From positions 1 through 64,000 of the forward strand of contig CAVUXE010000046.1 in NCBI GenBank assembly GCA_963745235.1: DNA of 64,000 nt. The letters run 5' to 3'. The position numbers and the translations under genes were made by a program. Below are positions 21,885 through 63,288 of the stretch, piece by piece; within the stretch, counting starts at the first letter, position 1; each line of letters begins with the position of its first letter. The DNA comes from an uncultured Spirochaetota bacterium. Its GTDB lineage: Bacteria; Spirochaetota; Spirochaetia; SZUA-6; Fen-1364. The notes under the pieces are model-generated. The model was not told the origin of the DNA, did not search any database, and worked only from the letters and a program-made list of their open reading frames with translations.

Positions 21885-21920
21885 CTTAGCTGAGATGCTG
21901 CGTCGGGGTCCGGACGGGCA

Positions 21921-45900: not shown

Positions 45901-48900
45901 TGAGCTGGACCGTAGCGCAGGAGATCGACGGGACAGGTGGGTTCGGAACCTCGGTTTCCATGAGCGGGCAGCTCGCGGTTGTCGGCGCGCCGCAGGCTAT
46001 TGGCGGCGACGGCGCGGCCTACGCGTACAGCGATCTCGGGAGGCGGCGGTCTCACCGCGCTGGGCGGCGCCCTGACGGCTTCGAACGGCGCATCCGGCGA
46101 CCTCTTCGGCCAGGCGGTCTCGGTGAGCGGCGGCTACGCGGTAGTCGGCGCCCCGGGTGTGGGCTCCAGCGAGGGGGCGGCCTACGTCTTCCTGGATTCC
46201 GCCGGAAGCTGGGCCCAGGTGCAGGAGCTGAGCGTTGCGCCGAATCCCTCCAACATCGGGCCTCCCAACGACTCCTTCGGAAGCGCCGTGGCCATTTCGG
46301 GCCCGCGGATCGTCATAGGCGCGCCCCTGCGTGACGTGACGACCGCGGTGGGCGGCGTGCCCACGACGGCTCAGGACGAAGGCGCCGCGTTCGTCTTCAG
46401 CCTGACAGGCGGCCAGTGGGGCCTGGAGACGGTGGTTGCCCCGCTCACCGGCTCGGATGCCGCGGCGGGAGACAACGTGGGCTACGCGGTGGCGGTCAGC
46501 GGGGACTTCGTGGTTGCCGGCGCGCCGCAGCTTGCCGGGCGGACGGCGTACAACAGCACCCCGGGGGTGATCAACACCTCGGGAGCCGGCTACGCCTACC
46601 TGCGAAGCGTCTCGCCCCCGACAACCGTGACCTACCCGGAGACACAGCAGACGCTCATCGACGGCGCTCAGGCCAACACGATCTCGGGCACCATCGGCGG
46701 GCTGGCAATGTCCACCGTGGAGTTCTTCGATGTCCCCAGCTTCACTATCAGCACGGGCAACGCTCCCAGCACCGTGACCATCGGCCCCGCCGGCCTGACC
46801 GCGTACGGCCTGGAGAACTTCAGCGTAAACGCGGGCTCGGCAAGCACCACGCTGGTGCTGCAAAGCCCGAACCTGACGCCGCCCCTTGTCGGTCAGTACG
46901 TGCCCACGGGGGATTTCAACGGCGCATCCTCCGGAAGCGCGCTGCCTCCGGGCGCGGGCTACATGCAGGTGACCGGGGCCTTCACGTTCAACGGCGTCGG
47001 CTCCAATACCGTGGTGGCCAGCGCGGACACCGACTGGACGCTGGACGGGACCACGCTCACCGGCGGCACCGGGGGGAACATCGTCCTGAGCGGCGTCCAG
47101 AACGTGCAGCTCATCGGCGGACCGAGCTCCAACCGCATCACCGTGGTGAGCTGGGCCGGCTCCGTCCTGGTCGACGGCAGGGGCGGGTCGGATCAGATCA
47201 CCGTGTATGCCGGGGCAGTGGCCAACTGGACGGTCAGCGAGACGACGGGCGGCCCCGCGGACCAGAACCAGCTCACCGTCATTGGCGGCGCCGGACCCAA
47301 CTCGTTCACCGTCACATCGGGTGAGATCTTCCTGGGAACGCAGGGATTCAGCTACAGCGGCATCCAGATCCTGAAGATCCTCGGCGGCCCGGGCAATGAC
47401 TCGCTGACGGTGGATGGCTCGAGCGCGGGCACCGTCATGCTGGACGGCGCCGCCGGGTCGGACACGTACACGGTTGCCGGCACTGGTTCTTTTGACGTGT
47501 GGGTGAGCGACAGCGGTCCCGGCCCCGCCCAGGGGGACACGGACACCCTGCGCGTTCCCGCAAACAGCGTCTCCGAAACGGCGGTGGGCGGCTTCTTCCG
47601 GCTCGTGTCGGGCGGCACGACCATCTATTACGACACGAGCATCGAGAAAGTGGAGCAGAACGCGGTGTCGCCCATCCTCACCGTTCAGGGCACGGGCGGG
47701 AATGACACCTTCACCGTCAACGGCTCGGTTCTGACTTTCAACTCGTTCGTGATCGACCTCACCTCGGTCACGCAGCTCACCATCGATGAAAATGGCGGCA
47801 ACGACACGATCACGGTCCTGGGAGTGCTGCCCACCCTGACATCGTTCGTCATCAACGGGGGCAGCGGCACCACGACGCTGGTGGGACCGAACGACCCGAC
47901 TACCTGGACCATAACGGGCCAGAACGCCGGCTCGGTTGGCGTGGGCAACTCGCAGGGAGGCACGCTGATGGTCTCTTTCACGAACGTGCAGAACCTGAGC
48001 GGCGGCGCGGGGTCCAACACGTTCGCGTTTGTCGGAGACTCCGCGGGCATCACCGGCAGCCTGGATGGAGGGGGCGGGCCGAACGTGATGAGCTGGTCCG
48101 GGCGATCGACCGGGGTAGCAGTGGATCTCGCTTCGGGCACGGTGACGGGTGTGGGCGGACAAGTCATGGATGTCCAAACATTCATCGCGGCAGGCGGAAG
48201 CGGGAACACGTTCATTGGCCCTGATGCCGACGCAACGTGGAACATCGACGGGACGAACAGCGGCATGCTCCTCAGCGGCGCCTCGACCTTCACCTTCGAG
48301 GGCTTCCAGAACCTGGTGGGCGGCGCGGGCTCCGATAGCTTCGCGCTCCTGCCCGGAGGATCCGTGAGCGGAGTCGTGGACGGCGGAGGCGGCGCGAACT
48401 CTCTTACTCTCTCCCCGGCGCAGCCGGATGAGGTCATTGGGGTGACCGCCACGATGGTCACGGTGGACGGCGCGGAGACGAGCTACGCGAACATCCAGGT
48501 GCTGAATGTCAGCGCGCTCGGCGGCTCCGACCAGGTCACCGTAGATCCCAGCGGAGCCGGCTTCCCCTCCTCGGTCAACATCGCCACGAGCGGCGTGGCT
48601 GACACCATCACGGTGGACCTTGCGCCGACCACGGCGACGACGATCAATATCAGCGCTGTCTCGCTTTCCACGGACACCCTCATCATCCAGGGTGCCTCCA
48701 CCCCGGATCCCGTCCTTGTCACGGACCCTCTGATCCAGTTCGACTCCCTGCAGGTGACTTTCACCAACGTGGAGAACCTCACGATCAACGGCGCGGCCGG
48801 GAATGACTCCATCACGCTCGTCGGCCCGATCGTCCCCGGGACCCTTTCGGTGAATGCGGGAACGGGTGACGTGATCGTCAACGTTGGAAGCCCTGCCATC

Positions 48901-51900
48901 GGTTCCGGCGGGACAGCAGGTGGAATTGCCTCACAGCTCATTCTGAACGGCGGCCCCGGCAACGACACGCTGAACATCGATGACTCGGGCGATACTGCCT
49001 TCACGAATGTCCAGCTTACCGCCACCGCGGTGGTTGGCCTGGGGAGCGTCATCCAGTACTCCGGCTTCGCCACCGTGAACGTGGCCTTCGGCTCATCGGT
49101 GAGCAGCCTGGTCATCGCCAGCACGGACGCGGGCATCACCAACGTATATGGGGGAGCAGGGACCGCCGTTGAGACAATCCAGTCCACCGGAGGACAGCTG
49201 ACACTGTATACCGGGGACGGGAACGACACGGTGAACGTGCAGTCCATCGGCGCTCCGGCAACCATCAGCCTCGGAGCGGGAAATGACACGGTGAACGTTG
49301 GGAGCCTGGACCCGGGGACCGGCGGAGTGGTGAGCGGGATAAGCGCTCTGCTGACCGTCAGCGGCGGCTCGGGGACTGACACACTGGTCATCGATGACTC
49401 CGGTGACGCGGCCCCGACAACCGGAACCCTCACCAACACCACCCTGGCCGGGCTGGGGATGGCAGGAAGCATATACTACCAGGGCATCGCGAACCTGACG
49501 ATTTCGCTCGGCTCGGGCGCGAACACGTTCGCGATCCTCAGCAACGACTCACAGTCCACGACCGTTGACGGCGGCGCGGGGAATGACACGTTCACGATAG
49601 CGGCAACCGCGGGAACGCAGGTCCCCGCCAGCGGTCCTTTGTTCGTGGATACCGGTAACGGGAACGACGCGGTGAACGTGCAATCCATCGGCGCTCCGGC
49701 AACCATCAGCCTCGGAGCGGGAAATGACACGGTCACGGTGGGAAGTCTTGCCCCGGGGACCGGCGGAGTGGTGAGCGGGATAAGCGCTCTGCTGACTGTG
49801 AGCGGCGGCTCGGGGACTGACACACTGGTCATCGATGACTCCGGTGACGCGGCCCCGACAACCGGAACCCTCACCAACACCACCCTGACCGGACTGGGGA
49901 TGGCGGGAAGCATCTACTACCAGGGGATCGCGAGCCTCCTGGTTGCGCTTGGTTCTGGCGTGAACACCTTCACGATCCTCAGCAACGACTCGCAGTCCAC
50001 GACTGTTGACGGAGGCGCGGGGAATGACACCTTCACGATAGCGGCCACTGCGGGAACGCAGGCCTCCGCCAGCGGGCCCCTGTTCGTGAATACCGGCAAC
50101 GGGAACGACACGGTGAACGTGCAGTCCATCGGCGCTCCGGCAACCATCAGCCTCGGAGCGGGAAATGACTCGGTGAACGTTGGGAGCCTGGCCCCCGCCT
50201 CGGGCGGAACGCTCGGCGGGATCACCGCGCTCCTCACTGTCAACGGCGGCTCAGGGACTGACACACTGGTCATCGATGATTCCGGTGACGCAACCGCGGC
50301 AACCGGATCGCTCACCAACACCACTCTGACCGGGCTGGGAATGGCGGGAGGCATTTACTACCAGGGGATTGCGAACCTCCTGGTCGCGCTTGGTTCTGGC
50401 GGGAACACCTTCACGATCCTCAGCAACGACTCGCAGTCCACGACTGTTGACGGAGGCGCGGGGAATGACACCTTCACGATAGCGGCCACCGCGGGAATGC
50501 AAGCCCCCGCCAGCGGGCCCCTTTTCGTGAACACCGGTAGCGGCGTTGACATGGTGACGATCCTCTCCACCAGCGGACCGGTCACTGTTACGACCGGCAG
50601 CGGCAACGACGCGGTGAGCGTGCAATCCATCGGCGCTGCGGCAACCATCATCCTGGGAGCCGGCACTGACACGGTCACGGTGGGAAGTCTTGCCCCAGCC
50701 ACAGGCGGTGTGGTGAGCGGGATAAGCGCCCTGCTGACTGTCAACGGCGGCACGGGGACTGATACCCTGGTCATCGATGACTCGGGTGACGCGGCCCCGA
50801 CAACCGGAACTCTCACCAACACCACCCTGGCCGGGCTGGGGATGGCGGGAAGCATCTACTACCAGGCTATTGCGAACCTGACGATTTCACTTGGTTCAGG
50901 CGGGAACACCTTCGCGATCCTCAGCAACGACTCGCAGTCCACGATCGTCGACGGCGGCGCGGGGAATGACACGTTCACGATAGCGGCAACCGCGGGAACG
51001 CAGGCCCCCGCCAGCGGGCCCCTGTTCGTGAACACCGGCAACGGTGTTGACATCGTTACGATCCTCTCCACGAGCGGACCGGTCACTGTCACGACCGGCA
51101 GCGGCAACGACCTCGTGAACGTGCAGTCCATCGGCGCCCAGGTAACCATCAGCCTCGGAGCCGGCACCGACACGGTCATGGTGGGAAGTCTTGCCCCAGC
51201 CATAGGCGGCGTGGTGAGCGGGATAAGCGCTCTGCTGACCGTCAGCGGCGGTTCGGGGACCGACACACTGGTCATCGATGATTCGGGTGACACGGCGCCG
51301 CAGCCCCTGGTTCTTGGCAACGATCATATCGGCGGGCTGGGCATGGCAGAGGGGATCGACTTCTCCTCAATCGCCAGCCTCGTTCTCCTGCTTGGATCGG
51401 GGGCAACAGACATCACCATCATCGGGACGCCGTCGGGCACCACGACAACCCTGACCCTTGGCCCGGGCAACGACACGGTGAACATCCAGGCAACCGAAGG
51501 CGCCCTGGATGTCATAACGGGAGCCGGAGCGGACACCATCAACATCTCCTCCGACGCGCCGGCGGACAGCGGGACCCTGGCCGGCATCCTCGGCGCGGTC
51601 ACCATTGACGCCGCGCGGGGTATGGCCACGCTGAATGTCAGCGATTCGGGAGACACGCTGCCGTCCCCCAACGTGATCATCACAGCCACCTCGATCACGG
51701 GACTCTCCCCCGCTGCCATCACTTATGTCACGAGCGGCGGGACTTTCAACGGCGGTGTCAATATCTCCGCCGGTTCGGGCGGCAACACCATCGTGATCCA
51801 GTCCACGAATCACGACCCCGGCACCACCACCACGGTCTGGTCCGGCAACGGCTCGGACACCGTCACGGTGACGGAGACCGACCCGACGTCCCTGGTGATC

Positions 51901-54075
51901 AACGGACAGGCTGGAAACGACGTGATCGATGCCACGGCTACAACAACGGGCGTGACGATCACGGACGGGAACGGGAATGACGTCATCCTCGGCGGTTCGG
52001 GGAATGACACCATCACGGCGGGCAACGGAAACGACCAGATCATCGGCGGCCTCGGGTCCAACACTATCACCGCGGGCAACGGAAACGACATCGTGATTGG
52101 CGCGGACGGGGAAGTTGTGCGGGTGGGCGGCCAGGTCGTCCTGGTGGAGTCCACCAGCGGGACGGAGGGCGGGAGCAACGTGATCACCGTGGGCAGCGGC
52201 AACGACGTGATCATTGGCGGCCCGGGAAACAACACAATTTCGGCAAACGGCGGACTGGCAACGCAGGATATCGTGCTCGGCCACGACGGCTACGTCACCT
52301 TCGGAGGAACGGCAAGCTTCGGTCCGGGGGAGGCCGGCTCGACGATGAGCTTCAACTTCGTCGACTCTTCCGAGGCCTATGTGAGCGGAGTGTTTGGAGC
52401 TCCCGGTGCGGCAGCAGGAGACTGGAACAACCTCGACGGCCTCTCCGGAACCTACGGTGCTTCCCCCGGTCAGTCCGCGCTGCTGAGCAACGGCGGCTCC
52501 GCCCCTGGTGTCACGGTCCAATGGAATGCGGCCCAGGGAAATGAGGTCACGGCGGCCACCGTGAGCGGGCTGTCATACTACTACGCTTCCTACAACGTGT
52601 ACGTCTACCTTGGCGGTGACGGCTCGGCGCCTTCGAGCGCCGTGAGCGACGGTTCGACCACCTACTACGTCACTGACGCCCAAGGCCGCAGCTTCTGCGG
52701 GACCCTGATCCAGGTGACATCGACGAACCCGAGCGCGCCGGGAGTCGGCAACTATGTCGTGTTCAGCGCTCTGACAGGAAACAGCTTCACAATCAGCGCG
52801 TCGAGCACCGCTTCCGGCGCCGGGCGCCACCAGGCCGCGGGGATGGCGGGCCTTCAGATCGTGGGCCAGAGCCAGCCGATCGACAGGATTGCCACGACGC
52901 TTCCGACGGTAGGCGGCAACGACACCATCATCCTTGCCGGCGGCTCGAACATTGTCTTCGGCGGCGCAGGCAACAATACGATCACCATCGGCGGGGCGGG
53001 CAGCAACATCGTGGCGGGCGGCAACGCCGAGGCCACGCTCGTCAAGGGCTCCGTTCGCTCCGTGCAGACCACGGATCCCGAGGTGGCCGGCAATGACGTG
53101 ATCACCACCGGCGCGGGAGCGGACATCATCTTCGGTGGCAGCGGCAACGACATGCTGAGCGCCGGGGCAGGCAACAACGTGGCGTTCGCGGACAACGCCG
53201 AGGTGACCTTCTTCCCCGCCGGCCAGCTGGGGATCCAGCTCCTGTTCCCGGCCTACGGCGGCAATGACACGGTGATTGTCGGCTCCGGCACGAACCTCTT
53301 CTTCGACCAGGCGGGCAGCGTCCGCTACATTTTCCCGGCCGGCGTCAGTGGCAGCGACACGATCGTGGAAGCGGGCTCCTGCGACTGCGCTGCCCAGGGG
53401 GCTCGGCACGACACATTTGATTTCAGCGGGTTTGGGGCTCCGATCGGCATCGACTACGGCGTGACGCAGACCCACTTTGTCGGCGGGAGCTCCGCCACCG
53501 CACCTCAGCTGGCGGTAACCGTCTCCAACCCGGGCAGCGTCGAGCAGGTCATCTCGACCGCGCGGGACCAGATCCTGATCGGTTTCTTCGACGTCGACAG
53601 CATGACCCACGGGAAGGCCCCGGCGGGCCTCTACGACGCGCACCATGATGAGGATGCCTCCCTGGCGGTGATCGTGAACGCCGGGGCGGGCGATGACCTT
53701 CTCACTGTGGCCAGCGCCGGGTGCGACGACATCACGGTGGCGGGCGGATCGACATCGACCACGCCCTGGTCTCTTGCAGTCGAGGATCCCAGCCTCGTTG
53801 TGATCAATACCGCGGATGCCGGCGCCGTCGTGAAGACAGGCGGCCTGCGCCGCGACCAGCTCGGGGACCTTATCGTGAACAAGGGTGCCGCGGCCACGAA
53901 TCCGCCTCCCTCGCAGCCGGACCACGACCAGTCCGGATGCGGCGACGGCTCATGCGATCCCGGCGATGGTTCGGGCAACTTTTGCGGCCTCGGCTTCACG
54001 GTGACCGGGTTTGCCAGCCCGACCATGAGCCTCCTCACCGCGGCGGATGAGGACCAGCGGAGCTTCGATCAGTAA
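21921..54075 (+). CDS. Giant LEPR-XLL domain repetitive adhesin (~10,716 aa when four +1 frameshifts are repaired)
   Basis: N-terminus 'FQLEQLEPRLLLSA', no Sec signal. ORFs 21921, 30145, 40955, 43098 and 45979 step +1 each time with continuous protein character across each junction. (32155-4)/3 = 10717 codons including the stop. Confidence 0.88.
24500..30100 (+). repeat. ~365-aa diverged protein repeats ('AFNTVGW..N.L...DALLG' x6, with 'YEYMG..DL...NY.D..W' module x5)
   Basis: AFNxxG motif at ~24530, 25640, 26700, 27815, 28910 and 30000 (~1.1-kb period; W follows in the first five). Confidence 0.85.
42730..46600 (+). repeat. FG-GAP (integrin-alpha-like beta-propeller) repeat region
   Basis: More than a dozen 'FGxSVAISGxxxVVGAP....GAxYVF' units. 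Confidence 0.88.
49220..51290 (+). repeat. Tandem 441/441/501/501-bp repeats plus a partial unit with RTX-like GGAGND motifs
   Basis: 'GND(T/A/L)V(N/S)VQSIGA' units start at 49220, 49661, 50102, 50603 and 51104 with high nucleotide identity. Confidence 0.92.
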
Positions 54076-54710
54076 TTGAACGGCGCAGGCGGCTTTGGGC
54101 CGGGCGGGGTGAACCCGTAGTCCACGCCGGCGAGGACCGCGAGCCTCAAGCGGCGGGTCGGCGGCAGGGGATCGACGAACATCATCACGGGGAGGGAGAC
54201 GCCTCCAAAGGAGAACCTCCATCCAACCGCGTAGACGATGGAAGGGGCGAGGGAGACGCCGCTGCCATCGTCGGCAAGCTCGAGTTGCGGCCCGAGGCCG
54301 GCCTCCAGGCCGAAAGGAGTTGTCGCTCCCAGGAGAAGGTCGAGAACCGGGAGCGCAAAGTTCTGATCCAGCCCGACCACCGTGAGGAGCTGGCTGAAAT
54401 AAAGGTGAAAGCCGGTCTGGGCAAGAGGCACCTGCTCCGACAGGTCCACGCCGATCTGGCTGTAGACTGGGAAGTATGTGTGCCCGCTGGGAAAGATACG
54501 CTGGACCGTGTCGTTGAAGTCTGAGGGTTGCGCAATCTCGCCGCCAACCCCGACCCTGGGCCCCAGGTAGAGCCAGGGAGAGCGCGGCGGCGACGGCTCG
54601 GCCTGCGCCGGGGCGGTCCCTCCCTCGTCCTGCGCCCAGGCGATGCCGGGTTCAGCTGCCAGGATAACCCCCAGGAAAGCAATCAGCCCCACGAATCGCC
54701 AGAGTTTCAT
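54069..54710 (-). CDS. Secreted protein with amphipathic beta-strands (putative small outer-membrane barrel); last gene of the export operon
   Basis: Signal peptide '...GIAWA|Q', 'WLYLGPRVGVGG', 'IVYAVGWRFSFG', aromatic C-terminus 'FNY'. It starts 16 bp after the secA-like stop with a purine-rich SD. Confidence 0.7.
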   Translation of the reverse strand: MKLWRFVGLIAFLGVILAAEPGIAWAQDEGGTAPAQAEPSPPRSPWLYLGPRVGVGGEIAQPSDFNDTVQRIFPSGHTYFPVYSQIGVDLSEQVPLAQTGFHLYFSQLLTVVGLDQNFALPVLDLLLGATTPFGLEAGLGPQLELADDGSGVSLAPSIVYAVGWRFSFGGVSLPVMMFVDPLPPTRRLRLAVLAGVDYGFTPPGPKPPAPFNY

Positions 54711-54726
54711 TCTTATTTCCCTTCCT

Positions 54727-56715
54727 TCATACTATGTCCCGACGCGCAAACGACAGGGAGTCATCCAGCCAGGTATCCATCCGCAGCACTGACCGCCTGC
54801 GGGCCGCGGCAAGCCGCTGGGCGAGCGCCTGGGCCAGGCGCGCCGCACCCGTGGCCTGAAGCCCGGCCCCGGGGAGCCTCCCCCGCAGCTGCGCCCCGAT
54901 GAGCAACCGCGCGGGGCGCGGGATGAATCTCCGCACTACCTCGTCCTCCAGGCTCATGTACAGGCGCGCGCTGCCGGGGTCCCCCTGGCGGGCGGCTCGG
55001 CCGAAGAGCTGCCTATCGATCCTCGACGACTCGTTGCATTCGGCGACGATCACGTGGAGGCCGCCGCGCCCTGCCACGCCGTTGCCCAGGCGGATGTCCG
55101 TGCCGCGTCCGGCCATGTTGGTGGCGATGGTGACAGCCCCCGGCGCTCCGGCGAGGGTGACGATCCCTGCCTCCTCACGATGGCGAACCGCGTTCAGGAG
55201 CCGGTGCGGGAGCCGGAGGGCGTCCAGTCTCCGGGAAAGCGACTCGCTGTCCTTGACGCTGCGAGTGCCCACCAGGACTGGACGGTCTTCGCGGTGAAGC
55301 ATCTGCACTTCGTCGATCACTGCCCGCCATTTCGACTGCGAGTCCGCGTAGGCGCGCGACGGGAAGAGCTGTCGCCGGGATGGCCGGTTCTCCGGCAGCG
55401 TGATGGTCGGAAGCTCGTAGATTGTCCACATCTCATCCGCGACCTCCCGAGCCGTCCCGGTCATTCCCGCAAGCCTGTGAAAAAAGCGATAGAAGCGCTG
55501 GAAGCTCAGGCGTGCCAGGGTCTCGGTGGGAGGGGTCAGGGGAAGGTTCTCCTGGGCCTCGATGAGCTGGTGCAACCCGAACCGCCACGTGCGTTGGGGC
55601 ATCTGTCGCCCGGTGAACTCGTCAACGATCACCACCTTCCCGTCCTGGATGACGTACTGGTGATCGCGATGGAAAAACTCACGGGCCGTCAGGGCCTGCT
55701 CCACGAGGTCCATGTAGCCGCCAAGCCCTCGATAGCGCGCTCCCGATTGTTCCACGAGCTTTCCCAGCCGATCCGAGAGCCGCGGAGACAGCTCGATCTC
55801 CTTGCGGCGCTCGTCCACCGTGTAGTCCGCGTTCCGTTCCAGCCCGGCGCTCACCGCGTGCGCAATCTCGCATGCTTCCAGGAAGAGGTCGTTCGGAAGG
55901 GAGTGCGAGATGACGAGCGGTGTCACCGCTTCGTCGATCAGTATGCTGTCCGCTTCGTCCACGATGGCGTAGTGGATGCCGCGCATGACGAGACCCTTCT
56001 CGATCTCAGCCTGCCTGCCGAGGAGTGCGGAGATCTGGCGCCGTCCGGCGTTCTGAAGATTGCCCAGCCAGAGACGGTCCCGCAGGAAATCCGCCACGAT
56101 CTCCTTGTTCGTCGTGTAGGTGACGTCCATGCGGTAGGCGTCCCGGCGAGCGTCGCGCCCCATGGGTCCCGTCACGCAGCCCACCGACAGCCCGCTGAAC
56201 CTGTACAGCGGGGCCATCCAGCGCGCGTCACGCTCCGCCAGGTAGTCGTTGACGGTGATGATATGGCAGGGGAGGCCGGCCCAGCCGCGGATCACCGCGG
56301 CAAGCGACGCGGTGATCGTCTTTCCTTCGCCCGTGGCCATCTCCACGAGGTACCCCTCGTACAAGGCAAGCGAGCCCGCCAGCTGCACGGTGTACGGCCG
56401 CATCCCCAGGTGCCGTTCGGCCGCTTCCCGCAGCGCGGCGAGCGCCTTCGGCACGAGACTCTCACTGCGGTCCGGGCGACGCCTGAATTGCTCCTTGAGA
56501 TCGAAGAGCCGGCTCTTCAGGACGCCGTCCGTGAGGGATGCCCACGCAGGGGCTTCCTTGTCTATCTGCTCCGCCTTTGCGAGCATGAGCCCCACGTTGC
56601 CGGGTCCCCGGGCAAGCCAGCCCGCCAGGGCGAAGAGGCGGGCGTCCAGGCCCTGGTAGATGTCCCGCGGCCGGCGGATGTTCGTGCGGCGGTACTCATT
56701 GGTGGGCGTGCTCAT
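54727..56715 (-). CDS. Accessory truncated SecA (SecA_DEAD + PPXD + NBD2 only), 662 aa
   Basis: 'EMATGEGKT', 'TVNDYLAERD', 'IVDEADSILIDEA', 'IVDEFTGR', 'GMTGTA', 'IATNMAGRGTDI', 'RIDRQLFGRAARQGDPGS', 'SLED'. It ends ~60 aa later. The likely start is ATG 56715, 4 bp after the upstream stop. Confidence 0.93.
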   Translation of the reverse strand: MSTPTNEYRRTNIRRPRDIYQGLDARLFALAGWLARGPGNVGLMLAKAEQIDKEAPAWASLTDGVLKSRLFDLKEQFRRRPDRSESLVPKALAALREAAERHLGMRPYTVQLAGSLALYEGYLVEMATGEGKTITASLAAVIRGWAGLPCHIITVNDYLAERDARWMAPLYRFSGLSVGCVTGPMGRDARRDAYRMDVTYTTNKEIVADFLRDRLWLGNLQNAGRRQISALLGRQAEIEKGLVMRGIHYAIVDEADSILIDEAVTPLVISHSLPNDLFLEACEIAHAVSAGLERNADYTVDERRKEIELSPRLSDRLGKLVEQSGARYRGLGGYMDLVEQALTAREFFHRDHQYVIQDGKVVIVDEFTGRQMPQRTWRFGLHQLIEAQENLPLTPPTETLARLSFQRFYRFFHRLAGMTGTAREVADEMWTIYELPTITLPENRPSRRQLFPSRAYADSQSKWRAVIDEVQMLHREDRPVLVGTRSVKDSESLSRRLDALRLPHRLLNAVRHREEAGIVTLAGAPGAVTIATNMAGRGTDIRLGNGVAGRGGLHVIVAECNESSRIDRQLFGRAARQGDPGSARLYMSLEDEVVRRFIPRPARLLIGAQLRGRLPGAGLQATGAARLAQALAQRLAAARRRSVLRMDTWLDDSLSFARRDIV

Positions 56716-56719
56716 GGGT

Positions 56720-58882
56720 CTACAACTGGTAGCGGGCCTGGAGCATCTGCCGCAGCCTCCGATAGCCCTGCGCCATGATGGGCTCCGGAGGGAGCTTGAA
56801 ATTGACCTCACCGGAGATGCCCTGAAAGAGGGCAGCGGCGTCGTTCCTCTGAATGCCCAACCGCAGCTCGTAGAATGACTGTGCGGCAATGTCCCCGCCT
56901 GCATCGCTGCTCGTCGGGAGGTTGCCCCCGCCTTGGAGCCCCAGCGCGGCGGAAGGGAGCCGCGTCTGCCCCGCGGGGATCCTCGTGATGCTCGTGACCG
57001 AAAGCGGGGCGTCTGCCTGGCCGGCCAGCCTGACCTTCGAGCCCCGGATGACGTTGGAGAAAACCGCGGAGGCGTCCTGCTGCGGGATCACGCAGACAAA
57101 GTCAAACCTCGAGTCATCGACGACCTTCCCGATCGAGGTCCCTCTCGGTATCCACATGTCGCTCATTTCATCCAGGTCCGGAGCAACCCAAAGCCCGTCC
57201 CGATCCGCCCTGACCACCAGGGCCTCCTCCTCCCGCTCCACGCGGTCCAGCTGGTCCTGGACGCTTGCGATGCTGTCGTCTATCGCGGGGAGGTCAGCGG
57301 GGCTTCTGGAGAGCGCCCGTGCCCGCACTGCCCTCGACTCGTCCATGTGAGCCTGGATCTCCTGCATCCGCGCGGCCAGCTCTGGATTTGCCAGCTGGAC
57401 CAGGATGTCTCCTTTGTGGACGCGGGAGTCCGACGGCACGAGGATCCGGGAAATGAAACCGGGAACCTCATTGACGATGGCGCCCTGTTCGGATGCCTGC
57501 AGGATCCCGGGGGCCCTGAAGCCTCGGGGCACTGGCACCACAACGAGGAGGCCCGCGGCCAGGGCCACGGCGGCCACCGTGACGCACGCGGCGCGCAGCC
57601 GGTTCTTTTCCAGGCGCGGATTGGCGACGAGGTAGTGGAGGACGCGCAGAAACGGAGTGATGACCCAGGCCACGGCGCACACTGCGGCCATGATGATTCC
57701 GAGCAGGAGGAAGCGGTCCGCGATGACGAGCAGGATCGTGGAAAAGACCACGAGCTTGTACAAGCCGCTTGCCGTTCCGAAGACGGTGAGCCAGCCGGCT
57801 TCAGAGGGCGTGGCCGCGGGGCTTTCGGACTTTCGCACCCCGAACGCGTAGTGCTCCACCAGGTGCCTCAGGTGCTGGTTGGCCCGGCTGGCCAGGTTGG
57901 GTATGTCCAGCAGGTCCGAGAGGATGTAATAGCCGTCGAAGCGCATCAAAGGATTCACGTTGAATACGATTGTAGAGATCGAGGCGACGAAAATGCTGTC
58001 ATACGCAAGGGCATGGAGGGTCCCCGGCCCGGTGGCCGCCCAGACGAACACCGCGAGCCCCGCGAGGAAGAGCTCCGCGACCATGCCCGCCGCTCCCACG
58101 AGCGCCCGCTGCCACTTGCTGCGGAACGACCATGCCGCAGTGGTGTCCGTGTACGGAAGCGGATTGAAGATCAGGAACATGAGCCCCATCGTGTGGACGC
58201 TGCCGCCGAATCGGCGCACGGCGCACGCATGGCCAAGCTCGTGGAACGTCTTGATGAGTATCAGGGAGAGATACAGCAGGGGCAGGTTGGACAGCGACAG
58301 CACTCCCTGGGCCTGGACCCTGAGCTGCGCGAAGTGATTGACGGCCACGGTGAGGGCCCCCAGCACAACCGCGGCCCAGAGGAGCCCGCCGGCGGGACCG
58401 ATCAGAAGGCGGATTGCGGGCAGGAGACGCTTGAGCAGCCCGTTCGGGTCGAACAGGGGAATCCGAAAGAACATGATGCTGCGAAGGGTGGCCCGCCTGA
58501 CGGACTGTTTCTGCCTGCGATACCGCTCGAAGAGCGTCTCACTGTCCGCGGGGAGATCGTAGTGAAGAAGGTTCGCGTGGTAGAGCTGGGAAAGGAGCTG
58601 GATGACCTCCTCCTGGCCGGGGGCGTTCTGCGGATCAAGCTCCACGCTCTCCCGCCACACATCGTCCACCGTGCGCCCGCTTTCCAGCCGGCAGAGAAAC
58701 TCATAGGCGGCCGGCCGCAGCCGGAAGAACTGGTCGCTGAACGGCTCGTGCAGCACGTACCAGCGCGATCCGCGGAAAAGCTGACGGCGCGCGCGCACGC
58801 TGGAGCGGAGGGAAAGCCTCTGGCCGGCAAGGCGGTACCACGATTCATGGAAGATCTTGTGCTCCGCGGGAGCCGCTGCCAT
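56720..58882 (-). CDS. PqqD/RRE-like domain + M50 (site-2) metalloprotease + HlyD-type membrane-fusion domain
   Basis: 'KTFHELGH' (HExxH), 'NPLMRFDGYY', multiple TMs, C-terminal lipoyl-like/coiled-coil MFP. N-terminal 'WYVLHEPFSDQFFRLRPAAYEFLCRLESGRTVDDVW...VIQLLSQLYHANLL' resembles a 3-strand/3-helix PqqD fold. Confidence 0.88.
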   Translation of the reverse strand: MAAAPAEHKIFHESWYRLAGQRLSLRSSVRARRQLFRGSRWYVLHEPFSDQFFRLRPAAYEFLCRLESGRTVDDVWRESVELDPQNAPGQEEVIQLLSQLYHANLLHYDLPADSETLFERYRRQKQSVRRATLRSIMFFRIPLFDPNGLLKRLLPAIRLLIGPAGGLLWAAVVLGALTVAVNHFAQLRVQAQGVLSLSNLPLLYLSLILIKTFHELGHACAVRRFGGSVHTMGLMFLIFNPLPYTDTTAAWSFRSKWQRALVGAAGMVAELFLAGLAVFVWAATGPGTLHALAYDSIFVASISTIVFNVNPLMRFDGYYILSDLLDIPNLASRANQHLRHLVEHYAFGVRKSESPAATPSEAGWLTVFGTASGLYKLVVFSTILLVIADRFLLLGIIMAAVCAVAWVITPFLRVLHYLVANPRLEKNRLRAACVTVAAVALAAGLLVVVPVPRGFRAPGILQASEQGAIVNEVPGFISRILVPSDSRVHKGDILVQLANPELAARMQEIQAHMDESRAVRARALSRSPADLPAIDDSIASVQDQLDRVEREEEALVVRADRDGLWVAPDLDEMSDMWIPRGTSIGKVVDDSRFDFVCVIPQQDASAVFSNVIRGSKVRLAGQADAPLSVTSITRIPAGQTRLPSAALGLQGGGNLPTSSDAGGDIAAQSFYELRLGIQRNDAAALFQGISGEVNFKLPPEPIMAQGYRRLRQMLQARYQL

Positions 58883-58891
58883 GCCTTCCTC

Positions 58892-60769
58892 CTACCACCA
58901 CAGGCGCAGCCGCAGGAAGTCCGCCGTGCGGTGCGTCAGGACCCAGAGGAGTCCCCTGGTTCCCGCATCGAGCCTTGCCACTCCTGTCATCCCCGGGCGC
59001 CACCAGCTCGCGGGGCCCGTCGGGAAGTTGCAGTCCACGATGAAGATGTTTCCCGTATTCTTCGTGACCGCCTCCGGCTCGATGCGGGTTACGGTGATCC
59101 GAGAGCTTTCCTGCGGCCGCGCGGTCAGGGCAATCTCTCCTCCCCGCGCATTCTGCAGCTCGCGGATATCCCTCTCACTGACCTCCAGCCGGGCATACAG
59201 GCGGTCGATGCGGGCGAGCTTGAAAAGCGTGTCGCCCTGGTGCACCGGCAGCCCGATGCGCTCCCGCAGGTCTCCTTCCACGATGATTCCTGAGAAGGGC
59301 GCCTTGATGACAGACTCATCCAGGTGGTAACGCACCTGGTCGTATTGCGCCGAGGCCTGGTCCACGCGGGCCTGCGCTATCCGCATGTCAGCCAGGGAAA
59401 AAGTCGCCCGCGCCTTGGCAAGCTCCGCCTGGTAGGACTCCCTCTCTGCGACGATCTGCGCCTCCGAAAGGAGGAGGTCCGTCTGGTCGAGGGCAAGAAG
59501 TTCCTGCCCTTCCTGGACGGTGTCTCCGATCCGTACGTCCACTTTCTCGATGTGACCGTCCAGGGGGGCGCTCAGGACGGCGACGTCGTCCGTTCGCAGC
59601 GTGACAGGCGCCTTGACCCGGTAGGGAACGCGCCCGAAGAGCACGAATGCCAGGAGGACAGCCCCGATGATTGCGAGGACCTTGAGCCATGTGTGCTCGA
59701 ACCCGACAAGGCGGGCGAAAACCTCCTTCGCCCCCAGGGCCAACCGGGCCCCGACCCATCTATCCCATCTCTTGAGGTCGGAGAGTCTCGGCCCGGCCAG
59801 GTCGCAGAACAGGCGCAGGTGCCGCACCTCGCGCTCGGAGAAGGGGGCCGTATTGCGCTCGCAGGTCAGGACCGCCACGGGTTTCCGGTCGATGCGAAGG
59901 GGAAGGGAGCACAGGTACCGTGAATCGTGGGCGCGCGAAAAGCCCTGATGGTCCCGGGTCACCGGGGCGCCCTGCGAGCCGGTTGCCGGCACGACGATAT
60001 CGCTGTCCTGGTCAAAGGCCTCTTCCATGGCTGCCTCGAGCAGCTGGACCGCGTCCGATGCGCGGTCGAAGCGGTCAACATGGCTCGTGGCCGCAAGCTG
60101 GATGTAGCCCTTTTCGTTCCACCCCAGGCTCACCCGCTCGCAGGCCAGGCGCGCGGCCGTCTCGTTGCAGAAAGTCATTGCGGCGGGGAGGAAGCGCCCA
60201 TGGTCGTTGAGGACCACGACCAGGTCCAGCGCGCCGGCAAAGCTTTCAACCTGGGCCTTCGATTCTCGGGCCATGCGCCGTTCCTGGTAGCTTGCCGGTG
60301 CGTCGGCCGCAAGAAGCAGGCGCCGCGAGATCTCCTTTGCTGAAACGAGGCTGGCGTTCTTCAGTCTCAGCACCGCGAGACACAACCCCTCCCCGACGCC
60401 GGCTTCGACCCGCAGCGCGACGAGGCGCTCACCGTCGCTTTCCCAGAGGGCGGCCCCTTCGCGTGCGCACTGTTCTGCCACCGCATCCAGCTGCGCCGGA
60501 AGATCAGCCTCCGCGCGGCCCCCATCCGCGTCCTGATTGTCTTTCGCAACGAAGCGCCACGCGGATCCGCGCTCCCGGCCGCGAACCATGATTGCTCCCC
60601 ACCCGGCTTCCGCCATGGACGACAGGATCCCCAGGAAAGCGCGCCAGAACTGCGCGGGCTCGCCCTGGAACCTCCGCAGCAGCGCGAGCTGCTCCAGGGA
60701 ACGCAGGTACGCCTCCTGCGGCCAATCGACGCGCCCCTGGTCCGGGATAGCCGCCTCTTCCCTGCTCAT
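58892..60769 (-). CDS. GAF-domain HlyD/efflux membrane-fusion protein
   Basis: GAF 'YLCSLPLRIDRKPVAVLTCER...FSEREV', one TM, MFP 'LSAPLDGHIEKVDVRIGDTVQEGQEL...IKAPFSGIIV...WWRPGMTG'. Confidence 0.88.
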   Translation of the reverse strand: MSREEAAIPDQGRVDWPQEAYLRSLEQLALLRRFQGEPAQFWRAFLGILSSMAEAGWGAIMVRGRERGSAWRFVAKDNQDADGGRAEADLPAQLDAVAEQCAREGAALWESDGERLVALRVEAGVGEGLCLAVLRLKNASLVSAKEISRRLLLAADAPASYQERRMARESKAQVESFAGALDLVVVLNDHGRFLPAAMTFCNETAARLACERVSLGWNEKGYIQLAATSHVDRFDRASDAVQLLEAAMEEAFDQDSDIVVPATGSQGAPVTRDHQGFSRAHDSRYLCSLPLRIDRKPVAVLTCERNTAPFSEREVRHLRLFCDLAGPRLSDLKRWDRWVGARLALGAKEVFARLVGFEHTWLKVLAIIGAVLLAFVLFGRVPYRVKAPVTLRTDDVAVLSAPLDGHIEKVDVRIGDTVQEGQELLALDQTDLLLSEAQIVAERESYQAELAKARATFSLADMRIAQARVDQASAQYDQVRYHLDESVIKAPFSGIIVEGDLRERIGLPVHQGDTLFKLARIDRLYARLEVSERDIRELQNARGGEIALTARPQESSRITVTRIEPEAVTKNTGNIFIVDCNFPTGPASWWRPGMTGVARLDAGTRGLLWVLTHRTADFLRLRLWW

Positions 60770-61593
60770 TCCTCCCCTTTCGACGGGAAAAGGAGGGTAC
60801 CCGTAATGCCCGGAAGGACCCGACCCTCGGGATTGTCAAAAAGCACCTTGATCTCCCGCAGCCCGCTGGAAGGATCAACCACGGGTGAGACGTAGTCCAC
60901 GGTACCCCGAGAGCCGGACTGCGGCAGACCGGGAACCGATATACGAACCTTCATGCCGACAGCGAATCCGGCAGAAGCCGCCGCATCCACGTGGGCGTCC
61001 AGGCGGCACTTGGAGACATCCACGATGCGCACCACCGGGGCCGGCGGAGCGCAGGAGTCCCCGAGGTAGACGAAAAGCTTGACGATCACGCCGTCGAACG
61101 GAGCGACGATGGTCCGCCGGGCGAGTTGTGCCTGGGCGATCTCGTAGTCGATCTTCTCCCGCTCTCCCGCCTCTTCGAGGCGCTTCACCTCGAGGGCCGC
61201 CAGCCTGGCCTCCAGCTCCCGCTGCAGCAGGTCGTTCTCCGGCACCGAGTGGGTGGTGGTATACAGCTCCCGGGTGCTCGCGAGCAGCCGCGTGTAGGCT
61301 TCCAGTCTCTGCCTGGCTTCGTCCAGCTCCACGGTGCTCTGCCAGATCTGCTGCCTGCGCTGGACCTCCAGGGATTCCAGGTCCTTGTCCAGCTCGAGGA
61401 TCTCTTCCCTGGCGCGCACGGTATCCCCTTCCTTCTTGAAGACCTGGGACACCGTTCCCGGCACGCTCACGCTGAGAGTCACGTCATGGTAGGGCTCAGT
61501 GATCCCCCTGACAGCCTGCTGCTGGGCGGCGGCCTGCCGCGGGATGGTGAGAACCAGCATGGAGAGCATGAACGTCACGACGAGCTTTGTCAG
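60766..61593 (-). CDS. Efflux RND/HlyD periplasmic adaptor subunit (possible CTG start at 61593; alternatives 61570 and 61686)
   Basis: 'VTLSVSVPGTVSQVFKKEGDTV', 'IVAPFDGVI', 'YVSPVVDPSSGL', 'LPGITG'. ATGA overlap with the next gene. Confidence 0.88.
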   Translation of the reverse strand: MTKLVVTFMLSMLVLTIPRQAAAQQQAVRGITEPYHDVTLSVSVPGTVSQVFKKEGDTVRAREEILELDKDLESLEVQRRQQIWQSTVELDEARQRLEAYTRLLASTRELYTTTHSVPENDLLQRELEARLAALEVKRLEEAGEREKIDYEIAQAQLARRTIVAPFDGVIVKLFVYLGDSCAPPAPVVRIVDVSKCRLDAHVDAAASAGFAVGMKVRISVPGLPQSGSRGTVDYVSPVVDPSSGLREIKVLFDNPEGRVLPGITGTLLFPSKGEE

Positions 61594-61722
61594 CGGACTC
61601 TCCTCGGCGCCTCGAAACGATTGTGTAGAAAGTACAGAGCCGGCGGGCGGGAGTGCAAGTTCTTTTTCCCTTGCTTTCTGGCGCATATTTTCCCGACCTT
61701 TTTTCCAGAATTGGAGGAAGCG

Positions 61723-63288
61723 ATGAAAGGCCGATCAGTCCTCGGCGTCTTCAGAGCGCTCGCGTTCTCCTGCGTCCTGTTCAACGCAGGGTCCACAGAG
61801 GCGCAGGAAATACCGGCGCCTGGCCGCATGATGAGCCTCGCCTCTTTCCTGGGGGACGTCGTTCGCACGAACCCCGGGGTGCGAGAGGCCCGCCTGCAGT
61901 GGCTCATCCAGACGGGGCAGGCGCGCGCGGAATGGGGCACCTACGAGCCCGTTCTCGCGGCCAGCGCGAAGGAGGAAGGGCTGCGCCAGCAGAACACGGC
62001 CCTTGAACAGTTCCAGCAGCTGGGAACCCCTCTGTACGACGAGAAGAACGACGCCTACTCCCTCGGGGTCGAGGGGAATCTTCCCACGGGGGCAAACTAC
62101 AATCTGGGCGCCTCCATCACCAGGTTGCAGGATACCTACGTCGAGCAGGGACAGTTCAAATCCTTCGTGGGCATTTCCGCCCAGCAGCCCCTCCTGAAAG
62201 GGTTTACCCACGGCGCCCCGATGGGCTCCATTCGAACCGCTTTCGAGGACCGCATCATTGCGTTTCACGAGTATCGCCGGCAGCTCATGTCCGCGGTGAC
62301 CCAGGCAGAGGCGGCATACTGGAACCTTGCGTTCGCGCAGGAAGTGCTTCGCATGGACTCCGAATCCGTCCAGGTGGCCCGCGACCTCCTCACGACCGCG
62401 AAGGAGGCAGCGCTCGTGGGGAAAATGTCCGACCTGGATGTTCGCGAAGCGGAGGCGGAGCTTGCCTCCCGCGAGGCAGCGCGGGAAGACGGGCAGATTT
62501 CCCTGAACGAGGCCCTGCGGCAACTGCGGCTGCTCACCGGCGGTGCGGGGGCAAAACCAGCAAACGACAGTATCGTTGCCACCGACCCGCTTGTTGCCAA
62601 CGAGGGAGGGCAGTGGGACCCGGCGGCCGAAGGCCGCAGCTACCAGGAGTGGGCCGAGCGCGCGCAACCCGATTACATGATCGAATCGGAGCAGGTGCTC
62701 AAGGAGGGCCTCCTGGTCGACCTGCAGAAGGACCAGGCTCTGCCTGAGCTCAGCCTCACGGGCAGTTACGGGTACAGCGGGCTCGGCGACACGCCTCAGG
62801 ATTCCCTTGGCAGCCTTGGGAGCCAGAGCTATCCGACGTGGTCGCTCGGGCTGGAGCTCCACATGCCCCTCCTCCTGGGCGTGAAGCAGCGCAACGAGCT
62901 CGACGTGGAGGAGCTCAAGAGGGAGCTCGCAACCGTGCGGCTCGCCGCGGTGCGCCAGCAAATGACAGACACCATCGTCTCCCTTGTCCAGAGCATCGCG
63001 ACACTCCGTGAGCATATCGACAACCAGCGAACGGTGGTCCAGGTCAAGCGCGACCTCCTGGCTGTCCAGACCGAACGGCTGCACGGCGGGACGGCCAGCC
63101 TCCTGGAAGTCTACAACGCCGAGGATGAGGTGCGGCAGGCCAGGCAGCACGAGCTGGAGGCAGTGGTCCGTTTCCGGCAGGCGTTGATGGAGCTGGGCCG
63201 GGCGAGTGGAGCCGTGCTCAGGGACCATGCCCTGGAACAGCTGAAGGACGGCCAGGTTGAGCTGAGGGAGGACCTGCGGTCACGGTAG
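61723..63288 (+). CDS. TolC family outer-membrane efflux protein (521 aa)
   Basis: GGAGG SD, signal peptide ending 'TEA|Q', 'QQPLLKG', 'EAAYWNL', 'LPELSLTGSY', 'WSLGLELHMPL'; two OEP repeats. Confidence 0.9.
   Translation: MKGRSVLGVFRALAFSCVLFNAGSTEAQEIPAPGRMMSLASFLGDVVRTNPGVREARLQWLIQTGQARAEWGTYEPVLAASAKEEGLRQQNTALEQFQQLGTPLYDEKNDAYSLGVEGNLPTGANYNLGASITRLQDTYVEQGQFKSFVGISAQQPLLKGFTHGAPMGSIRTAFEDRIIAFHEYRRQLMSAVTQAEAAYWNLAFAQEVLRMDSESVQVARDLLTTAKEAALVGKMSDLDVREAEAELASREAAREDGQISLNEALRQLRLLTGGAGAKPANDSIVATDPLVANEGGQWDPAAEGRSYQEWAERAQPDYMIESEQVLKEGLLVDLQKDQALPELSLTGSYGYSGLGDTPQDSLGSLGSQSYPTWSLGLELHMPLLLGVKQRNELDVEELKRELATVRLAAVRQQMTDTIVSLVQSIATLREHIDNQRTVVQVKRDLLAVQTERLHGGTASLLEVYNAEDEVRQARQHELEAVVRFRQALMELGRASGAVLRDHALEQLKDGQVELREDLRSR

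Follow-up and report, generated by a model that had tools for sequence, protein, structure and literature searches.

A candidate ABC-less export cluster with a SecA-type motor, facing a giant LEPR-XLL gene in a probable spirochaete

The DNA analysed here, called the window, comprises 64,000 nucleotides: it makes up the initial 64 kb of a 72-kb contig (CAVUXE010000046.1, indicated as C46) from the metagenome-assembled genome (MAG) GCA_963745235.1 of an uncultured Spirochaetota bacterium, 5.85 Mb in size, 85.7% complete and with 5.9% contamination. It contains a cluster of genes coding for three adaptor-type proteins, a SecA-like ATPase and a TolC-family channel, facing a giant gene whose predicted product begins with a LEPR-XLL leader. 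The cluster is read here, with a confidence slightly above even, as a dedicated, ABC-less, one-step export apparatus for proteins carrying this leader at their N-terminus, the client being in this case a filamentous repeat protein of about 10,700 aa. The evidence suggests that LEPR-XLL is the recognition tag of the machine, and that the tag is read with parts of the type known from ribosomally synthesized and post-translationally modified peptides (RiPPs); neither the tag nor the RiPP-type reading parts were found in print.

Loci of this type have been described by Kamneva, Poudel & Ward (2015; PMC4452313), who report a secondary SecA_DEAD protein in a type-I-like neighbourhood: SecA_DEAD without SecA_SW, GAF/HlyD, Peptidase_M50/HlyD, HlyD and sometimes OEP, with no ABC gene, an absence noted by those authors. 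There, SecA_DEAD is proposed to act as ATPase, and a pore function of the M50 protein is considered possible; the main text, by a term search, names no substrate, and Spirochaetes are not among the carriers it lists. For Methylobacterium extorquens AM1, the genes META1p2399-2402 are named in that paper. An earlier note on this DNA had pointed to these clusters, and the parts do agree: in the present genome a SecA_DEAD protein without SecA_SW is found beside a canonical SecA encoded elsewhere, with matching neighbours and no ABC gene. Loci of this type having been published before, the cluster by itself adds a further member, from a new phylum. The novel elements, compared with the main text of the 2015 paper, are the link to LEPR-XLL, the domain resembling a RiPP recognition element (RRE), the invariant catalytic site and the small outer-membrane barrel gene. 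Full-text literature searches returned no published follow-up on the locus.

Classical type I systems (HlyB-HlyD-TolC; LapBCE) have in common with the locus the membrane-fusion adaptors, the TolC-family channel and a giant, repeat-rich RTX client. Unlike them, the locus features no ABC gene, three adaptor-type proteins, a SecA-type ATPase, a putative N-terminal signal and no conserved C-terminal region. The peptidase-containing ABC exporters of bacteriocins carry a C39 domain and have clients with a double-glycine leader: the recognition and cutting of an N-terminal leader by an exporter-borne protease, proposed here, would be alike, while the protease is M50 and not C39, the motor is SecA-like and not ABC, and the cargo is about three orders of magnitude larger. 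The M50 proteases and PqqD-type RREs of RiPP pathways correspond to the HExxH intramembrane protease and to the beta3-alpha3 domain, to which the leader is predicted to add a strand; differences lie in scores below the family cut-offs, in the fusion to a periplasmic adaptor, and in the client, a giant protein instead of a peptide. Gram-positive SecA2 systems and Omnitrophota likewise associate an additional SecA of reduced extent with surface proteins of very large size; for Omnitrophota, a preprint by West-Roberts et al. (2023) describes scaffold-less, wing-less SecA_DEAD domains inside giant proteins. Compared with these cases, no SecY2 is seen here among the scanned window ORFs, and the motor is a separate protein, not an embedded domain, encoded in an operon with adaptors and TolC.

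Gene content of the cluster and of related loci

The cluster includes five minus-strand genes, between 54069 and 61686, with successive spacings of -4, 9, 4 and 16 nt, and a divergent gene for the TolC-family protein; the stop of the last minus-strand gene, P213, and the end of the giant plus-strand frame (54075) overlap by 7 nt. The layout given in the earlier note was reproduced in all these respects, and every family expected from it (SecA_DEAD, Peptidase_M50, HlyD, OEP, GAF and, through profile NF012209, LEPR-XLL) was matched by profile annotation. The genes are the following.

61686..60766, minus strand: MFP1, 306 aa, plain membrane-fusion adaptor (HlyD_D23 67.9 bits, HlyD_3 54.8 bits)
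60769..58892, minus strand: GAF-MFP, 625 aa (GAF 32.5 bits, HlyD_D23 66.4 bits)
58882..56720, minus strand: M50-MFP, 720 aa (Peptidase_M50 29.2 bits, cut-off 27.2)
56715..54727, minus strand: SecA-like protein, 662 aa from the ATG at 56715 (SecA_DEAD 305 bits, SecA_PP_bind 85 bits, P-loop_SecA 175 bits)
54710..54069, minus strand: P213, 213 aa, with a signal peptide and, in its model, an 8-stranded barrel
61723..63288, plus strand, divergent: TolC-family outer-membrane channel, 521 aa (OEP 108.7 bits), with a GGAGGA ribosome-binding site and a signal peptide
21921..54075, plus strand: giant LEPR-XLL gene, putative cargo, about 32.15 kb, about 10,716 aa if read as a single frame
21942..21995, plus strand: LEPR-XLL leader motif, residues 8-25 of the giant protein (NF012209)

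The SecA-like protein contains the first nucleotide-binding domain (NBD1), the preprotein cross-linking domain and the second nucleotide-binding domain (NBD2), and ends about 60 aa past the latter. Its alignment with B. subtilis SecA covers residues 12-539 of the latter (E 2e-125); over the three domains, identity to the canonical SecA of the same genome is 39%, and the Walker A, DEAD-box, GRGTDI and arginine-finger motifs are retained. SecA_SW finds no match in the protein, against 191.9 bits in the canonical SecA (contig C52). Its 555 bits remain under the SecA equivalog cut-offs of 800 and 814 (TIGR00963 / NF009538); SecA2 families score 339-480 bits, so that the protein lies under every SecA/SecA2 equivalog cut-off. 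By its sequence, it is predicted to be an ATPase core with a preprotein clamp, devoid of wing, scaffold, two-helix finger and C-terminal tail. The parts missing here, on the scaffold/wing side, are those which engage SecY in established SecA-SecY structures.

The adaptor proteins match HlyD_D23 and HlyD_3 with scores spanning 55-68 bits. The cut-offs of the families specific for type I secretion are not reached, either by the adaptors (type_I_hlyD) or by the TolC protein, to which type_I_sec_TolC gives 75 bits. GAF-MFP consists of a cytoplasmic GAF region, a single transmembrane helix and a periplasmic membrane-fusion domain; an atlas search with its N-terminal 345 aa returned GAF clusters only.

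ABC genes were not found on C46 by tblastn with 12 ABC domains of the same genome; genome-wide, in a search which did not extend to the PrtD and LssB models, the best match to type_I_sec_HlyB (TIGR01846) reaches 349.9 bits (cut-off 725.55). As to RND and SecY families, none is present in the Pfam scan of 23 window ORFs, the one search that covered them. The statement that the cluster lacks an ABC ATPase thus holds for the contig, and no match in the genome reaches the HlyB cut-off.

A pattern scan for the M50 fusion, taking one genome per species, gave at least 568 confirmed relatives, of which the 80 best loci were retained, with flanks of up to 10 kb. By record title, they come from Verrucomicrobiota, Planctomycetota, Lentisphaerae, Desulfobacterota, Nitrospirota, Myxococcota, Methylomirabilia, Fibrobacter and beta-/gammaproteobacteria. 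Synteny is conserved: a SecA-like gene is present in 56 of the 62 loci whose sequence extends for at least 2.3 kb past the M50 gene, on its downstream side, and GAF-MFP in 65 of the 67 with at least 2.3 kb upstream. Where at least 6 kb are available on both sides (36 loci), MFP1 is found in 30 and TolC in 14. An ABC-type ORF lies within 10 kb in only two of the 80 loci. In most related loci TolC lies upstream and in the same orientation, so its divergent orientation in the window has the appearance of a local inversion. The annotated starts of MFP1 and TolC are 36 nt apart (61687-61722); the true start of MFP1 may be Met40 or Met43, which would widen this gap. In six loci (L005, L019, L024, L035, L050, L078) the M50-adaptor gene is present and no SecA-like gene occurs within at least 2.3 kb downstream; their motor may be encoded elsewhere, or be missing.

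P213, the fifth gene of the operon, behaves differently. Its model (pLDDT 90.2) is an 8-stranded barrel of the OmpA/OmpX/Ail type; Foldseek matches are OmpA-TM, Ail and OmpX (E 2e-4 to 1e-3, target-normalised TM-scores 0.5-0.64), and no family was matched in profile scans. The P213 family is small, with 80 representatives at E <= 1e-3. When searched by a 36-member HMM among ORFs of at least 80 aa, it is found in none of the 80 related loci, and blastp likewise finds none. The earlier note had counted this small outer-membrane protein among the parts of the system: as a conserved part it has to be dropped, and the sequence comparisons indicate a lineage-specific accessory.

The M50 fusion protein and the leader

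M50-MFP belongs to a well populated and unusually conserved family: among 8000 scored proteins, 2404 match at E <= 1e-3, with lengths clustering at 716-721 aa. In the best 120 listed, identity is at least 50% throughout, and source names come from several phyla. Three domains are recognised, all encoded on the minus strand.

M50-MFP residues ~15-110, minus strand: RRE/PqqD-like cytoplasmic domain (fold of the model; PqqD matches in homologues)
M50-MFP residues ~147-448, minus strand: polytopic M50 metalloprotease, with HELGH at 214-218 and NVNPLMRFDG at 308-317 (Pfam, alignment)
M50-MFP residues ~450-720, minus strand: periplasmic membrane-fusion domain (Foldseek adaptor matches)

The catalytic motifs are conserved without exception: all 21 aligned members have H214, E215, G217, H218, N308, N310, P311, D316 and G317, so that HExxH and NxxPxxxxDG together make up a complete site-2-protease signature. 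The curated families which come nearest are RiPP leader proteases: NF041824, the daptide intramembrane metalloprotease, gives 180 bits (E 6.5e-53, cut-off 300) and NF058609, YydH/LiaK, 33 bits against a cut-off of 225.

The AlphaFold model of M50-MFP (pLDDT 78.3, pTM 0.50) has an N-terminal domain of beta3-alpha3 type, with strands at 30-36, 39-46 and 51-55 and helices at 57-64, 72-82 and 90-102, followed by a helical membrane domain and, from about residue 450, by an adaptor fold. Foldseek, run with the whole model, returns adaptor structures only, the top ones being MacA, MexA and AcrA (E 6e-12 and weaker), which supports the predicted adaptor fold. The predicted RRE-like fold agrees with the PqqD profile, which matches 13 of 21 homologues at E <= 0.05 (best E 2.4e-5).

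The first 430 residues of M50-MFP were modelled together with cargo residues 1-40, with alignments for both partners, in three runs and with 3 controls. The complex scores 0.69 (0.68-0.71 in the runs), the best of the 3 controls 0.00; the mark used for this score is reached by 58 of 80 solved complexes and by 2 of 110 mismatched pairs, counts which hold only roughly here, because own alignments were used. Contacts agree between runs by at least 76%, and the leader partner has a pLDDT of at least 55. In the RRE-like domain, leader residues 5-23 are in contact with residues 51-56 (strand 3) and 86-105 (helix 3), the pairs of lowest error being M50-MFP 52-55 with leader 10-13. This placement, with the leader against both elements, corresponds to the mode of binding that is canonical for RREs. 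In the same model the leader also contacts residues 207-218, 242-251 and 306-316, including H214, E215, H218, N308 and D316. The model thus supports binding of the leader both to the RRE-like domain and to the M50 active site.

LEPR-XLL proteins as putative clients

The N-terminus of the giant protein matches NF012209 (LEPR-8K) at 25.3, 29.6 and 30.1 bits, against a cut-off of 17. This is the sole match over cut-off in the genome; the module, likewise present once, and the LEPR gene are mutually adjacent. PF07595 (Planc_extracel) reaches 14.4 bits on the same leader, below its cut-off, and NF012209 was therefore used as the leader profile. The consensus is F-x-[LV]-E-x-L-E-P-R-x-L-L-S-A: in 12 aligned leaders E11, L13, E14, R16 and L19 (window numbering) are invariant, and little else is common. 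A classical hydrophobic core is not present, the maximal 12-residue hydrophobicity being 1.19, compared with 2.1-2.95 in three Sec signal peptides of the window (P213, TolC and a second giant ORF, described below); this is suggestive, and no more than that, of something other than a Sec signal peptide. The rest of the protein features LktA_tand_53, FG-GAP_2 and RTX repeats, the last RTX-like motif lying about 310 aa before the C-terminus.

Of the 80 related loci, 14 have in their flanks an ORF that carries the motif within residues 1-150. These ORFs, 15 in number, mostly start 65-250 nt past the SecA-like gene; two of them, of 320 aa (L074) and 396 aa (L078), are doubtful. The background of the motif is low: in this genome, of the 3968 ORFs with 300 aa or more, 3 carry it, the true gene included; the selected motif segments match NF012209 in 12 of 12 cases. 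Since the 10-kb limit of the flanks hides convergent arrangements like that of the window, 14 of 80 is a lower bound. In Motiliproteus, a 5'-open ORF of 2618 aa, which stops 256 nt ahead of GAF-MFP, forms the end of a 9147-aa frame with a 35-bit LEPR start; a Nitrospira record has three tandem LEPR genes just upstream of the module. A Phycisphaeraceae chromosome contains 15 LEPR matches, scattered, none of them in the module locus: the link between module and LEPR-XLL holds also where adjacency is absent, as fits a general export route, not a fixed gene pair. LEPR-started open frames in other genomes reach 14,191, 19,216 and 20,466 aa, and are among the largest bacterial frames encountered.

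Co-occurrence was evaluated at the level of genomes. All of 15 picked module genomes have a LEPR match over cut-off, compared with none of 14 controls; the 15 are a non-random choice, including 3 with a visible motif, 8 with a large 5'-open neighbour ORF lacking a visible motif, and 4 with neither. In two broader samples, a genome was scored as having the module, under a strict definition, when its match to A1, the M50-adaptor, reached at least 400 bits (for the class of G302, full-length matches divided between contig ends were accepted as well), and, under a lenient one, for any A1 match at E <= 1e-30. Both are reported because the distribution of A1 scores is clearly bimodal in the verrucomicrobial sample only.

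Verrucomicrobial phylum sample (G301, Limisphaerales), 201 genomes, strict: both 14, module only 1, LEPR only 4, neither 182; Fisher p 4e-17
Same 201 genomes, lenient: both 14, module only 32, LEPR only 4, neither 151; Fisher p 3e-7
Class of G302 (Comamonadaceae), 221 genomes, strict: both 11, module only 5, LEPR only 5, neither 200; Fisher p 1e-11
Same 221 genomes, lenient: both 13, module only 16 (the unpublished G656 among them), LEPR only 3, neither 189; Fisher p 9e-11

The effect is clear, in direction and size, in two unrelated groups. The four LEPR-only genomes of the verrucomicrobial sample have weak matches (18.7-19.6 bits) in frames of 38-354 aa; one of the five in the class of G302, G571, has a 284-bit A1 match 4.4 kb from its LEPR match. 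The lower mode of the A1 scores corresponds to a paralogous family of M50-adaptors, about 700 aa long and with 129-335 bits to A1; its members are frequent, and are not associated with LEPR-XLL. In the sample of the phylum to which the window belongs, 301 genomes, LEPR is found in two (G000, and one with an 18.6-bit match) and a full-length M50-MFP in G000 only; three others score 45-51 bits, over the M50 domain alone. The earlier note had connected the machine with LEPR-XLL cargo, and had named lack of co-occurrence as an outcome that would refute it: with 15 of 15 picked genomes, and a strong association in two samples, the connection survived.

The single 32-kb gene described in that note stands for its LEPR-XLL start, matched by NF012209 at the N-terminus; as assembled, the reading frame is broken into five plus-strand segments (21894-30761, 30130-41220, 40877-43282, 43074-46331 and 45964-54072), each junction being a +1 shift. 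At each junction, protein-like sequence carries on in the new frame, while the old one turns Arg-rich. This continuity, together with the FG-GAP_2 repeats extending through the last three segments, indicates one gene, not five. The junctions were compared with contigs of four runs (X1, X2, X4, X5), from four studies, covering window positions 29500-46500.

30136, plus strand, first junction: one base fewer than the window in 4 of 4 runs, in X1 with 7.39 of 80.2 depth only
41159, plus strand, second junction: one base fewer in X2 and X5; X1 agrees with the window; X4 without cover
43094, plus strand, third junction: one base fewer in X1, X2 and X5; X4 without cover
45992-46033, plus strand, fourth junction: in X1 and X4, +1, -1 and -1 at 45992, 46001 and 46033, net -1; these changes are not present in X5 (depth 2); X2 without cover

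Contig indels do carry errors, as seen from further single-run indels at 36609 and 40459/40461; yet four multi-run indels falling exactly on the four junctions are not due to chance. As each junction site lies inside the overlap of two open segments, the shorter version reads as a single frame. The extra bases of the window may be assembly errors, or may mark a strain-level pseudogene.

A conserved signal at the C-terminus of the cargo was also looked for: all-against-all blastp with the last 500 aa of 16 cargo-like neighbour proteins yielded 5 weak pairs only, of repeat type. RTX repeats and C-terminal regions vary among the 16, and are not conserved.

Genomic setting, proposed mechanism and alternatives

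The non-giant parts of C46 have a GC content of 60-61%, the genome of 61.2%, and the tetranucleotide distance of these parts is 0.0064, against a median of 0.0059: the possibility of a mis-binned contaminant finds no support. A sigma-70 gene just past TolC is 59-69% identical to proteins of Spirochaetia/Spirochaetales MAGs (P0215, P0218, P0221, P0305, P0308), the sole organism names in its best 120 matches. On composition and on these relatives, the attribution of the DNA to a probable spirochaete stands. GC content rises to 65.6% in the operon and the giant gene, from 60-61% in the contig parts on either side; this, and the rarity of the module in the phylum, fits an acquired island, while the elevated GC alternatively fits the Ala/Gly-rich coding of these genes.

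Two further groups of genes are located in the window. A second giant ORF (1-8817, minus strand) is cut by the start of the contig and has at least 2939 aa; with a Sec signal peptide of classical type, and with neither a Pfam family nor the LEPR motif, it belongs to a different class of giant proteins. An AAA_16 gene (876 aa) and a BTAD gene (427 aa), at 17284-21185 on the minus strand, lie divergently upstream of the giant LEPR-XLL gene and are candidate regulators of it. The sequencing runs containing the stretch are labelled peat, soil, freshwater-sediment or wetland metagenome, or plain metagenome.

The proposed export route would run as follows. In the cytoplasm, the RRE/PqqD-like domain would capture the short hydrophilic leader, which would add itself as a beta-strand alongside strand 3 and helix 3; the residues past the motif would then enter the intramembrane M50 active site, and the leader would be removed, in analogy with the C39 peptidase of bacteriocin exporters and with the YydH/daptide M50 proteases of RiPP pathways. 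The SecA-like motor, without the parts coupling SecA to SecY, would supply ATP-driven translocation of the unfolded chain from N- to C-terminus. The periplasmic domains of the three adaptor-type proteins would form a conduit to the TolC-family channel, leaving no periplasmic intermediate, and the GAF domain may be a regulatory input. Taken in full, as a distinct and widespread pathway of diderm bacteria in which a leader bound in RiPP style by an RRE is cleaved by M50 and a SecY-free SecA core exports megadalton proteins N-terminus first, through a three-adaptor/TolC conduit, with LEPR-XLL as the export signal, the proposal is put at somewhat less than an even chance.

Several observations weigh against this reading. 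In the class of G302, 5 module genomes are without LEPR and 5 LEPR genomes without a strong module, exceptions that incomplete assemblies could explain; at the lenient threshold, a paralogous M50-adaptor without LEPR accounts for 32 of 46 module genomes in the verrucomicrobial sample and for 16 of 29 in the class of G302. The tests ignore the relatedness of the genomes, many of them incomplete, so that the p-values overstate the case. The cargo gene is frameshifted four times in the assembly, with X1 agreeing with the window at 41159, and its RTX repeats lie near the C-terminus, as in classical type I substrates, which leave C-terminus first. The PqqD profile has no match at E <= 0.05 in the window's own M50-MFP. 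Structures of RRE-leader complexes have been solved, and the score of the complex model may therefore partly reflect likeness to them. Finally, M50 proteases are not known to form protein-conducting pores, which leaves the inner-membrane path of a megadalton chain unexplained.

The first of the alternatives was already suggested for the M50 protein by Kamneva et al. (2015) and taken up in the earlier note as an M50-derived inner-membrane channel: M50 would be a degenerate, non-proteolytic channel, through which SecA pushes the cargo, with the leader serving for targeting only. M50 is indeed the sole polytopic membrane domain in the operon. The invariance of HExxH and NxxPxxxxDG in 21 of 21 members, across phyla, would be unexpected after loss of catalysis, and in the complex model the leader lies in the active site; a channel of this purely non-catalytic kind is at odds with such a site and is regarded as unlikely, and the wording of the earlier note was abandoned. 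Invariant catalytic residues, a preceding RRE/PqqD-like domain and a leader modelled in the active site make a leader-recognising peptidase the better reading, a channel role being possible in addition. Similarly improbable is an exit of the cargo C-terminus first, by a classical type I system with its ABC protein encoded elsewhere, in which the module would retain, release or regulate the adhesin by its N-terminus. The logic of such an accessory module is comparable to that of LapD/LapG acting on LapA, and agrees with the position of the RTX repeats, with the occurrence of a GAF sensory domain and a protease in the module, and with a MAG only 85.7% complete. It is countered by the low score of the best HlyB match, by the scarcity of ABC ORFs in the 80 loci and by the lack of conservation of RTX repeats and C-terminal regions in the 16 cargo-like neighbours, and leaves a conserved SecA-type ATPase, in synteny with three adaptors and TolC, unexplained.

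Accessory SecA2 systems of Gram-positive bacteria export very large adhesins, and the scores of SecA2 families on the SecA-like protein, in a genome that also has a canonical SecA, would suit a two-step route: an accessory SecA would hand LEPR-XLL proteins to the housekeeping SecYEG, and adaptors and TolC would pick them up from the periplasm. This too is held to be of low probability, because the SecA-like protein is without the whole scaffold/wing region, two-helix finger included, the leader has no hydrophobic core like that of Sec signal peptides, and no SecY2 is present among the scanned window ORFs. Least credit is given to the view that the module matures or exports another product, such as a small RiPP-like peptide, and that LEPR-XLL genes are mere neighbours on a mobile island. 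Such a product would agree with daptide and YydH/LiaK proteases as the nearest curated families, and the island with the GC difference and the rarity of the module in the phylum; against it stand the Phycisphaeraceae chromosome, whose LEPR genes lie away from the module, and the co-occurrence in two samples. No conserved small ORF was noticed in the loci, among which no systematic search for one was made.

If the distinct-pathway reading is true, it would explain how the largest proteins of the phyla concerned, with frames of up to about 20,000 aa, exit the cell without a Sec signal peptide. Should LEPR-XLL be the export signal, for thousands of giant LEPR-XLL proteins an export route and a cleavable leader could be predicted; two well-studied families would acquire new roles, SecA as a motor operating without SecY and M50 as the leader peptidase of an exporter; and the leader would become a candidate tag for exporting very large recombinant proteins. 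The idea would be directly testable in culturable carriers.

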